16,293 bases of DNA from Promethearchaeota archaeon (GTDB lineage Archaea; Asgardarchaeota; Thorarchaeia; Thorarchaeales; Thorarchaeaceae), in NCBI GenBank assembly GCA_014728035.1, contig WJMJ01000105.1, positions 1 through 16,293 on the forward strand, in the 5' to 3' direction. How positions within the stretch are numbered: position 1 is the first letter of the stretch; each line of letters begins with the position of its first letter. Made by a program: the position numbers and the translations under genes. This document shows positions 1,163 through 10,233 of this stretch, piece by piece. The notes under the pieces were generated by a model. It had not been told where the DNA came from. It saw nothing but the letters and a program-made list of their open reading frames with translations, and did not search any database.

Positions 1163-1251
1163 TGGCGGATGGGGAGGGATTCGAACCCCCGGTGCATTTT
1201 GTGCACACTGGTTTTCAAAACCAGCGCCTTCGACCACTCGGCCACCCATCC
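1163..1251 (-). tRNA. tRNA-Ser (anticodon UGA), 89 nt, CCA encoded
   Basis: Acceptor stem GGATGGG/CCCATCC, D arm TGGCCGAGTGGTCGAAGGC, anticodon arm CTGGT-TTTGAAA-ACCAG, long variable arm, T loop GGTTCGAATCC, discriminator G followed by CCA. Confidence 0.97.

Positions 1252-4965: not shown

Positions 4966-4966
<1 letters not shown>
4826..4966 (-). pseudogene. Detached 46-aa C-terminal fragment of the nucleotidyltransferase at 6996-7760
   Basis: Hand translation ERIKRLLLQCLEEHYGSLDKVIHQESASVDALREIALIVDRNRELI*. It has no ATG or RBS of its own, is AT-rich like the backbone, and continues ...SDLQYGPSL naturally. Confidence 0.8.
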
Positions 4967-6995
<2,029 letters not shown>

Positions 6996-8928: not shown

Positions 8929-8996
8929 CTTCCGCATGCCCAACCAATAATAACAAAAATGAACACCACAAACAAAACTATGGCGATCTTAATCAT
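8925..8996 (-). CDS. Putative 23-aa single-TM peptide
   Basis: Hand translation MIKIAIVLFVVFIFVIIGWACGR; ATGA overlaps at both ends. Confidence 0.4.
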   Translation of the reverse strand: MIKIAIVLFVVFIFVIIGWACGR

Positions 8997-9376
8997 GTCT
9001 TAAGCTCTTTCGTCAATATTTTTATGAGCTTATCGCATTGCTCTTTGCTAAACTTCGAAATATGAGCATTATCCTTGTCTAAATCCATGGTTCTGGCCAA
9101 CCATTTATAAGCTTCTTTGCGTCTCATAGTAGCTTCTGGTCCATTCCATAGTTTATCAAATAGATTATGTGCCTCTATTCTGCTTTGTTTTGTGGGTTTG
9201 TCAGCAGGAATGCCAAGTGGCTCACCAGTCTTTTTGTGTGCACCATGAGACCCATCACATTTTGGATAATTAGCACATCCATAAAATAGGCCATATTTTG
9301 AATTTCTCAATATCAATTCGCCACCACACTCCGGACATGGGTGTTTTAATATATGGCCAGGATTATACATTCTCAT
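8993..9376 (-). CDS. Zn-ribbon protein (topoisomerase C4-type zinc finger plus DUF3268-like region)
   Basis: CPECG...FYGCANYPKC...HGAH...PLG.PA...R..AH..FD.LW...AY.WLA...AHI. The start may be ATG 9370, using GAGG from array repeat 1 as RBS. Confidence 0.85.
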   Translation of the reverse strand: MRMYNPGHILKHPCPECGGELILRNSKYGLFYGCANYPKCDGSHGAHKKTGEPLGIPADKPTKQSRIEAHNLFDKLWNGPEATMRRKEAYKWLARTMDLDKDNAHISKFSKEQCDKLIKILTKELKT

Positions 9377-9567
9377 CCTCTCATGCGCACGTGGGCGTCA
9401 CGTCCAGCTATTTGGTTCGTTACAATACGCGAGAGACTATCCTCCCATGCGCACGTGGGCGTCACGTCTATCAGCGGAGGCAGTCATCCTCCCATGCGTG
9501 GGCATCACGTAATCGCCTGCGGTGGGGAAGAAACTTCCATCCTCCCATATGCACGTGGACGTCACAT
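9375..9567 (+). CRISPR. Orphan, degenerate CRISPR-like mini-array (4 repeats, 3 spacers)
   Basis: Repeats at 9375-9403, 9439-9467, 9486-9510 (4-nt deletion) and 9539-9567; consensus ATCCTCCCATGCGCACGTGGGCGTCACGT. Unique spacers of 35, 18 and 28 nt. Internal hairpin CCCATG-CGCA-CGTGGG. Confidence 0.65.
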
Positions 9568-9580
9568 TACACCCGTTGTA

Positions 9581-9643
9581 TAGTCTCCATCCGGAGATTA
9601 CTCACCATCGTGGGTGAGCTTAGGCCCGAGGATGAGGGCCTGA
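9581..9643 (+). ncRNA. Three abutting stem-loops next to the array (putative structured RNA)
   Basis: TAGTCTCC-ATCC-GGAGATTA (9581-9600), CTCACC-ATCGTG-GGTGAG (9601-9618), TTAGGCCC-GAGGATGA-GGGCCTGA (9620-9643). The non-Watson-Crick pairs are G:U only on the + strand. Confidence 0.45.
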
Positions 9644-9849
9644 ATTATATATCAAAAATGTCAATCCAAGTCCATGTGGACACTATAACGTGTGGGTCTA
9701 TATTCTTTGGATCTAGATACTCGATGTCCGCGTATTGCAGATGCACACTTATCTTGCTCAAATTTTGTGGCATCTAATCTTTCCACAATATCCCAAAATC
9801 TATACTAGAAGGCATGGCATCATATCTTACCCATGGTCTAATTGGCATC

Positions 9850-10233
9850 TTATTTCACAATACGTTCAGTAATCCATTTATTACTATGCCGATAAATGAT
9901 CTTCCCAACACCAGCTTTCTTAAGCTTTTCTTGACACACATTGCATGGACGTGATGATCCAGGTATCCCTTTGGTATATCTATAAGTAAGAACAGTGGAT
10001 CCTTTTAACGATACTCCCATTCGTGCCGCTTTGATTATGAGATGTTCTTCGGCGTGAATCGATCTTTTCTTGGTATTGTCAAATATGTTATAGTTATTGG
10101 CATGTAAAGTTGACACAATTTTGGGGTTTAAATGAGACGAAATGACAATAGCTGCCATTTTAACTTTACGCTGATTTGACTTTTTAGCCGTATTTATGGC
10201 TATTTTCTCTATGTCTGGAGTTAACTGGAACAT
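9850..10233 (-). CDS. Cytidine/dCMP deaminase-family zinc protein
   Basis: HAE and PCNVC zinc-binding motifs; adjacent to thyX. Confidence 0.88.
   Translation of the reverse strand: MFQLTPDIEKIAINTAKKSNQRKVKMAAIVISSHLNPKIVSTLHANNYNIFDNTKKRSIHAEEHLIIKAARMGVSLKGSTVLTYRYTKGIPGSSRPCNVCQEKLKKAGVGKIIYRHSNKWITERIVK

Follow-up and report, generated by a model that had tools for sequence, protein, structure and literature searches.

We analyzed the 16,293-nucleotide (nt) contig WJMJ01000105.1 (hereafter the window) of assembly GCA_014728035.1, which is binned as a Promethearchaeota archaeon, and addressed a small array of CRISPR-like repeats at positions 9375 to 9567. We proposed that this array is probably the guide part of a minus-strand module, composed of a scaffold and a mini-array, which serves a nuclease-dead Cas12f (dCas12f)-like protein of the same T4-like phage. 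An earlier note, made from the letters of the window, had described a phage-borne, CRISPR-like repeat-spacer array in a window without a cas gene, and this description held, as we found no cas gene in the window. Its passing suggestion that the array might guide an unrecognised effector matches the dCas12f-like protein that is encoded on another contig of the bin (C131).

The Array and the Adjoining Three-Hairpin Element

The array comprises four copies of a 29-nt unit (9375–9403, 9439–9467, 9486–9510, and 9539–9567) separated by unique spacers of 35, 18, and 28 nt, which confirmed the layout given in the earlier note. A search with the 29-nt consensus, allowing at most three mismatches, recovered copies 1 and 2 and gave 0 matches in 200 shuffles; copy 3 has lost four internal nt, and copy 4 carries four substitutions. 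The repeats contain short overlapping palindromes, and the 5/6/4/6/8 parse that had been proposed for them is a correct description of the plus strand. At 9568–9643, the array is adjoined by an 85-nt three-hairpin element whose consecutive hairpins span 9585–9643, and the whole module occupies a 470-nt gap between two co-directional minus-strand genes, with the array taking up most of this gap. Read on the minus strand, the module would begin with an AT-rich box, followed by the three hairpins (9643 down to 9585), a linker, and four 28-nt repeats, each followed by a unique guide. The components are given below in this order.

9644 to 9654, minus strand: AT-rich, −10-like box directly upstream of the scaffold, possible module promoter
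9620 to 9643, minus strand: hairpin 1, 6-bp GC stem with an 8-nt loop (9628–9635); five of the six pairs covary
9600 to 9619, minus strand: hairpin 2, 7 bp with a 6-nt loop; six of the seven pairs covary and 100% of cells are paired
9585 to 9598, minus strand: hairpin 3, 5 bp with a 4-nt loop; four of the five pairs covary
9566 to 9584, minus strand: linker from the scaffold to the first repeat, possible weak anti-repeat (RNAalifold helix 4 with the first repeat)
9538 to 9565, minus strand: repeat R4, scaffold-proximal 28-nt core, fused to the scaffold
9509 to 9537, minus strand: spacer/guide 1, 29 nt between repeat cores, unique
9485 to 9508, minus strand: repeat R3, 24-nt core with a 4-nt internal deletion, both ends retained
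9466 to 9484, minus strand: spacer/guide 2, 19 nt, which exceeds the 14–16 nt guides reported for dCas12f (PMC13472631)
9438 to 9465, minus strand: repeat R2, consensus copy
9402 to 9437, minus strand: spacer/guide 3, 36 nt between repeat cores
9374 to 9401, minus strand: repeat R1, terminal, overlapping both the start codon of the DUF3268 gene downstream and its ribosome-binding site

The AT-rich box is kept in four of six module copies at the same position relative to hairpin 1. A sigma-70 scan did not call it, as it lacks a −35 element; we infer from it only a possible promoter of the module.

Six Modules on Three Phage-Like Contigs

The search for further copies that had been suggested for this array was productive. 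In the whole bin (4.3 Mb, 173 contigs), the repeat cluster with its 85-nt element was present in six copies of 93–100% identity, confined to the window contig (C74), C70 (three copies), and C131 (two copies, one of them with just a degenerate repeat). The C131 array and the C70 array near 57 kb show a 61–62 nt period, and over all arrays the gaps between 28-nt cores range from 18 to 36 nt, with a mode of 32–34 nt. The 15 spacers (in window 9402–9537; C131 9754–9965; C70 57759–58023 and 19460–20082) are all unique and have a G+C content of 54%, against about 40% in the three contigs and 39.5% in the bin as a whole; judged by their composition, they were probably drawn neither from the phage nor from the binned archaeon. 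The repeat variants are array-specific, and the variant bases of R4 are those of the scaffold-proximal repeats in the C70 57-kb array. The direction from scaffold to array is that of the flanking genes in every copy, which in the window is the minus strand. The rightward increase in degeneracy, which had been taken to point to the plus strand, is real in the window array, whereas the sister arrays on C131 and C70 have their decayed repeats at the end distant from the three-hairpin element. Outside these contigs, no 85-nt element or repeat was found by exact scans of IMG/VR, Joint Genome Institute (JGI) metagenome contigs, and GTDB genome contigs, by blastn against GenBank phages, in 60 relatives of the bin, or with nhmmer and blastn across 80 loci of related T4-like phages in IMG/VR.

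The gene content of these contigs is that of a T4-like phage. C131 carries the sole T4-type major capsid gene (gp23) of the bin, whose product is 70–79% identical to those of many IMG/VR contigs, and C70 carries a T4-type portal gene (gp20) together with NrdD, intein-containing genes, and tail proteins. Because the three contigs share the module and their T4-type gene contents are complementary, we infer that C74, C70, and C131 are fragments of a single T4-like phage genome that ended up in the archaeon's bin. No adaptation genes were found on the phage contigs.

A Predicted Nuclease-Dead Cas12f-Like Effector

The effector gene (C131:7211–8602) encodes a protein of 463 amino acids (aa) without a Pfam match. 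Searched as a single sequence against the PDB, the protein matched the Cas12f chain 9nzq (E 1.5e-6) and AsCas12f chains (E about 1e-3), and an exhaustive HMMER search with it collected 189 cluster representatives at E-values up to 1e-3. A profile of 35 family members matched 9nzq at 4.5e-23, AsCas12f at about 1e-18, and the natural dCas12f 9n9c at 1e-12. The AlphaFold2 model (mean predicted local distance difference test score, pLDDT, 86.6) gave top Foldseek matches that were all Cas12f (AsCas12f, 7e-19) or dCas12f (9n9c, 1e-16). In a pairwise HMMER alignment to 9nzq, the RuvC-I Asp is replaced by Ala and the RuvC-II Glu by Phe, with which the family consensus agrees, and the protein stops about 65 residues short of the Cas12f end, without the zinc ribbon and RuvC-III. 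Thus, sequence and predicted structure indicate that the effector is most likely a nuclease-dead Cas12f-like protein.

The effector gene is single-copy in the bin and is flanked by a scaffold-only module (6882–6977) and a scaffold-plus-array module (9644–9980), all on one strand. A tblastn search found no homologue in 50,697 GenBank phage records, no close relative was found in IMG/VR, and no rpoE or helix-turn-helix (HTH) partner was seen beside the gene. Directly after the C131 array lies the gene of a candidate partner protein (C131:10076–10768), which is without a Pfam or PDB match. Its homologue at the metagenomic locus L114 (3744–4361, 205 aa, E 7e-20), the only locus in which homology was shown, directly follows the effector gene there. 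Because the two proteins are homologous by sequence, we concluded that the partner (about 205–230 aa) is conserved.

Metagenomic Relatives and Covariation of the Scaffold

Effector homologues in metagenomic contigs showed 29–37% identity to the phage protein; similar repeat arrays were present at four of their loci, and a structurally matching scaffold at three. In the closest relative, L113 (37% identity), about 160 non-coding nt separate the gene from an array of 32-nt repeats lying behind it; at L114, a 205-aa gene and then 276 nt of non-coding DNA stand between the effector gene and an array on its strand. At L115, three scaffold-plus-mini-array modules lie behind the gene and a partner-sized 219-aa gene; their repeats measure 29 nt, truncated copies retain the guide-proximal portion, and the scaffold contains a 14-nt anti-repeat. 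The array at L116, with 29-nt repeats and a 61-nt period, lies upstream of the gene.

A covariance model of the six phage scaffolds with their first repeat, in gene orientation, was searched against five relative loci with its filters off and yielded six matches (E 2e-4 to 0.016) in L113, L114, and L115, all on the gene strand and at the expected non-coding places, one of them directly upstream of the L113 gene, like the phage scaffold-only copy; the best reverse-strand match had an E-value of 0.86. No match was found in L116, L117, or L118. At L117 and L118, hardly any DNA flanks the gene; L116 extends nearly 2.4 kb downstream, but because its array starts at the contig's first bases, an upstream scaffold would fall off the contig. 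Across 1.07 Mb of related T4-like DNA, the model had no match either. To count covariation, we used an alignment of 11 matches, which is fitted to the model and holds five non-phage sequences from the loci L113 and L115 only; the L114 match (E 0.016) was below the alignment cut-off and did not enter the count. In this alignment, standard pairs occupied 93.9% of the cells, compared with 26–43% when the partners were slid, and changes on both sides occurred in 26 of 33 pairs, including 15 of the 18 pairs of hairpins 1–3. These comparisons pointed to a conserved, structured scaffold RNA that is most likely read along the gene strand.

Several parts of the scaffold bear on its strand and function. 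Hairpin 2 is closed by a G:U pair in the phage copies and by a G:C pair in the relatives, a combination that pairs solely on the window's minus strand; the six phage scaffold copies differ from one another only in the loop of this hairpin. Helix 4, predicted between the linker and the first repeat, likewise includes several G:U pairs that are valid on the minus strand only. The linker may tentatively be regarded as a weak anti-repeat, for which the covariation counts are favorable but come from the model-fitted alignment. In hairpin 1, the loop complements the guide-proximal end of each system's own repeat, with eight contiguous pairs in the phage, six in L113, and six in L115, each of which is equalled by about 5% of loop shuffles. 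Pseudoknots adjoining the guide are known in TnpB and Cas12f RNAs, and the loop complementarity suggests a pseudoknot near the guide in this RNA as well. In the phage, RNAduplex pairing between scaffold and repeat was not better than with shuffled repeats, and just the short loop complementarity remains.

A scaffold with a single degenerate repeat stands immediately upstream of the effector gene both on C131 (6882–6977) and at L113 (804–918). Such a scaffold-only copy might provide one guide for controlling expression of the effector itself.

Strand of the RNA and Proposed Mechanism

Type V effectors use a guide that lies 3′ of the repeat and scaffold. Because a Cas12f-type effector needs a guide in this position, with which the relatives agree, and because scaffold, array, and effector gene are co-oriented and the scaffold model matches the relatives on the gene strand, we proposed that the minus strand is most likely the better reading of the RNA. 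The plus-strand transcript that the earlier note had expected is disfavored on the same grounds, as the scaffold model matched on the gene strand, the minus strand of the window, only. Comparison of 13 full-length phage repeats showed that, in the minus-strand reading, the guide-abutting end is nearly invariant and the opposite end variable; the guide-proximal end is retained even in deleted copies. The 3′ polarity of the guide is thus favored by the co-orientation, the invariant guide-proximal end, and the truncated repeats of L115, whereas a wobble pair and a terminator-like site would allow the other strand. In the repeat hairpin, a constant U:G pair and the variant of repeat 1 pair by wobble on the plus strand only, as had been argued for the plus strand; the variant shared by copy 4 and three sister repeats, by contrast, wobbles on the minus strand only, and the argument is not decisive. 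A scan for promoters and terminators was likewise indecisive between the strands, and the T-rich tail of the plus-strand terminator-like site is missing in two of the six module copies.

The mechanism that we propose includes a presumed binding of the RNA by the effector and a presumed biological role. The module would be transcribed with, or like, the flanking genes. The scaffold would bind the effector, and scaffold and first repeat would together act in cis as a single-guide-like RNA; the later repeat-guide units would probably be released and paired with the scaffold in trans, in the manner of a trans-activating CRISPR RNA (tracrRNA). Pairing of the hairpin-1 loop with the guide-proximal repeat end may assist the joint action of scaffold and repeat. 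The sequence 3′ of each repeat would guide the complex to matching DNA, which would be bound and left uncut, perhaps with the partner protein acting alongside the effector, and the bound complex would probably stop genes of the host or of rival phages from being transcribed, or redirect their transcription. The spacer lengths of 35, 18, and 28 nt, which had been called aberrant, were observed as such, yet they would fit guides that are read from the repeat-proximal end, as relatives use guides of 14–16 nt (PMC13472631). The spacers of 19 and 29 nt are unproblematic because published guides are 14–16 nt or shorter.

More speculatively, a virulent-type T4-like phage may carry a programmable, non-cutting DNA binder, made up of dCas12f, the partner, and six mini-arrays, in which modules placed in different transcription units would supply stage-specific guide sets that silence host or rival-phage genes, with the GC-rich spacers recording the targets. 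We consider this extended scenario possible though doubtful.

Points Against the Proposal and Alternative Explanations

Several points weigh against the proposal that the array guides the dCas12f-like protein. The production, strand, ends, and processing of the RNA are deduced from sequence. The effector gene lies on a different contig than the window in a bin with 8.5% contamination, and their linkage is made through the shared module and the T4-type genes. The covariation counts come from the model-fitted alignment described above, with non-phage sequences of two loci. The phage scaffold-repeat complementarity is short (8 nt) and individually significant only at about 5%. The window array itself is partly decayed, with one deleted repeat and one 19-nt spacer. 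The constant wobble pair of the repeat hairpin favors the plus strand, on which the third hairpin and a following T-rich stretch also score as terminator-like. Finally, a search for protospacers, which the earlier note had proposed against phage and host sequences, gave none for the 15 spacers in the bin, related phage loci, GenBank phages, or plasmids: the bin held no match of at least 18 nt (the best, of 17 nt, is low-complexity and consistent with chance over 15 queries), the related phage loci and GenBank phages held none, and the lone plasmid match had an E-value of 0.2. The lack of a target would be expected if the targets lie in the phage's host or in rival phages.

The explanation of the earlier note, a plus-strand RNA of type I-E geometry that is processed by host Cas6e/Cascade and acts as a hijacked mini-array against competitors or as a decoy like an RNA anti-CRISPR (Racr), now appears quite improbable. 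It draws on the repeat parse, which fits the plus strand, on the 61–62 nt period of the sister arrays, on the constant U:G pair and the repeat 1 variant, which pair on that strand only, and on the terminator-like hairpin that follows the array there; moreover, the true host could have a CRISPR system of this type. Against this, the stretch that would form the 8-nt handle lies at the repeat's variable end (the last two handle positions and three others vary among the 13 full-length repeats), and the opposite end is nearly invariant; the spacers, at 18–36 nt, are not of a regular 32–33 nt, with a mode of 32–34 nt over all arrays. A plus-strand array would also be antisense to all flanking genes and have no room for a promoter, with the start codon of the opposite-strand gene abutting it, and the scaffold, its homologues beside dCas12f genes, and their strand point the other way. 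Because 28–29 nt repeats and a period of about 61 nt also occur in the dCas12f relatives L115 and L116, the geometry is not evidence for type I-E. The Cas6e family PF08798 had no match in the bin, a weak result, as the control genomes were positive in Thermus only and not in Escherichia coli and the phage probably has another host than the bin. CRISPR arrays that belong to the bin itself (C36 6330–6600, C83 8480–8815, and C104 40–230, the last with Cas1 beside it) have repeats unrelated to the phage repeat, which argues against a decoy of these arrays but may not apply to those of the phage host; the spacers of the bin's arrays had no match on the phage contigs. An array that serves a 245-aa protein of the RAMP (repeat-associated mysterious protein) kind, resembling a stand-alone Cas7, is a still weaker contender and very improbable. 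The corresponding open reading frame (ORF; C131 8701–9438) is located between the gene for the dCas12f-like protein and the array of C131, shows in a glycine-rich segment a sub-threshold similarity to Cas7, Cas6, and Csm4, and would suit the class 1-like repeat geometry, but the similarities are not significant (E 0.19–0.83), the ORF has no homologue in six relative loci that bear a dCas12f-like gene, four of them with arrays, and the scaffold co-varies with the dCas12f family.

Two further explanations limit or dispense with a guiding function of the modules. The modules could be vestigial or selfish remnants of a dCas12f locus that were spread by recombination, as T4-type regulatory cassettes are, with the scaffold-proximal guide or none in use and the window array decaying. 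The deleted and substituted repeats and short spacers, seen here and on C70, the distance of modules from the effector gene, the lack of targets, a C70 gene cassette bracketed by two modules, and the vestigial arrays described at dCas12f loci (PMC13472631) all suit such a history. Nevertheless, the scaffolds remain 97–99% identical in unrelated surroundings, their differences fall in loops, the guide-proximal repeat end is kept in deleted copies, and L115 has the same multi-module layout, truncated repeats included, which suggests a working design; we therefore consider this explanation unlikely. Finally, a phage DNA-binding protein could recognize the repeats as operators or iterons in the DNA, with the hairpins as incidental palindromes. 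Overlapping short palindromes within the repeat and the position of the arrays directly upstream of gene starts are compatible with this, but compensatory changes keep the three hairpins across very different sequences, the link with an RNA-guided protein family is conserved, and the spacers are unique, GC-rich, and mostly 32–34 nt long, and we regard DNA sites as highly improbable. A phage-specific regulatory or recombination cassette of the T4 kind had also been a candidate and was dropped on the Cas12f link and the covariation.

Genomic Neighborhood

The genes of the window are phage-like and include a tRNA, ThyX, dCMP deaminase, RNA ligase, nucleotidyltransferase, HsdM, and a DUF3268 zinc-ribbon protein. 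Three features give the context of the module.

8993 to 9376, minus strand: DUF3268/topoisomerase-type zinc-ribbon gene, downstream of the module (Pfam PF11672, E 7e-29), outside the system
9850 to 10233, minus strand: dCMP/cytidine deaminase gene, upstream of the module (Pfam PF00383)
1166 to 1251, minus strand: tRNA gene (Rfam, 61.5 bits), the sole Rfam match in the window

A complete gene for HsdM, the methylase subunit of type I restriction-modification systems, was observed at 4966–6621, amid phage nucleotide-metabolism and RNA-repair genes; neither HsdR nor HsdS was found among the window ORFs scanned. On C70, three large phage genes, NrdD among them, contain intein and LAGLIDADG domains (32928–37082, 29476–31527, and 54574–57396). 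C70 also carries, at 19530–19853 (L013 1127–1450, minus strand), a 107-aa ORF with a predicted membrane helix, which lies on the opposite strand and is bracketed by two modules; it resembles a small cassette inserted between them.

Comparison with Known Systems

RNA-guided, nuclease-dead relatives of TnpB and Cas12 have only recently been recognised as natural regulators of transcription, in bacteria and a few prophages. If the proposed reading is true, phages, too, use array-programmed DNA binding, likely for host takeover or competition between phages, and a compact programmable DNA binder of 463 aa, with a scaffold of about 85 nt and a 28-nt repeat, is added to this group. For annotation, phage mini-arrays that look like orphan type I-E arrays may belong to a distant, unannotated effector derived from type V.

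The module shares with type I-E arrays, phage mini-arrays, and Racr RNAs the repeat length, the central hairpin, the period of about 61 nt (in the sister arrays), and the location in a phage without nearby cas genes. It differs from them in that the handle end is variable, the strand is probably the opposite one, the scaffold is private and the effector type V-like, and the repeats of the bin do not match. Type V-F Cas12f systems (AsCas12f 8j12/7wju, OsCas12f 9nzq, and Un1Cas12f1 7c7l) resemble the phage system in effector fold, in having arrays, and in a separate structured RNA that pairs with the repeat, whereas in the phage the catalytic residues are lost, the protein is truncated, adaptation genes are missing from the phage contigs, and the scaffold, at about 85 nt, is far shorter and joined to the first repeat, with repeats of 28–29 nt.

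The best functional precedent is TldR of prophages, a nuclease-dead, TnpB-like protein that represses host flagellin by binding a host promoter with the help of an adjacent guide RNA (10.1101/2023.11.30.569447). Both are phage-borne, nuclease-dead proteins of the TnpB/Cas12 lineage with guide RNA, but TldR is TnpB-derived, has one guide resembling omega RNA and no array, and occurs in temperate phages, whereas the present protein is Cas12f-like, has multi-guide arrays, and belongs to a T4-like phage. The dCas12f-sigmaE systems of Bacteroidota (PMC13472631; 9n9c) have in common with it the nuclease-dead Cas12f fold, the stem-loop scaffold of a single-guide-like RNA, and a short 3′ guide; there, arrays have been lost and an extracytoplasmic function (ECF) sigma factor activates transcription, whereas here arrays are kept and no sigma gene stands beside the effector.

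The closest counterpart was described by Hoffmann, Wiegand et al. (Nature 2026; PMC13472631), who reported C-terminally truncated dCas12f proteins beside CRISPR arrays, with a putative guide RNA (gRNA) scaffold upstream and 3′ guides of 14–16 nt, and proposed that these array-associated proteins control transcription by being aimed at promoters. The phage system agrees with this cluster in its truncated Cas12f-like protein without a complete RuvC, the nearby array, the upstream scaffold, and the 3′ guide, and the phage protein family matches the solved dCas12f 9n9c. It differs in that the published cluster is found in bacterial genomes, with no phage mentioned (PMC13472631), whereas the present one belongs to a T4-like phage and has six modules, most of them distant from the effector, a partner of no known family, and no rpoE or HTH neighbor seen. 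Taken together, nuclease-dead Cas12f beside CRISPR arrays with an upstream scaffold is already known, and the carriage by a T4-like phage, the six dispersed modules mostly remote from the effector, the very short scaffold, and the conserved partner are new.

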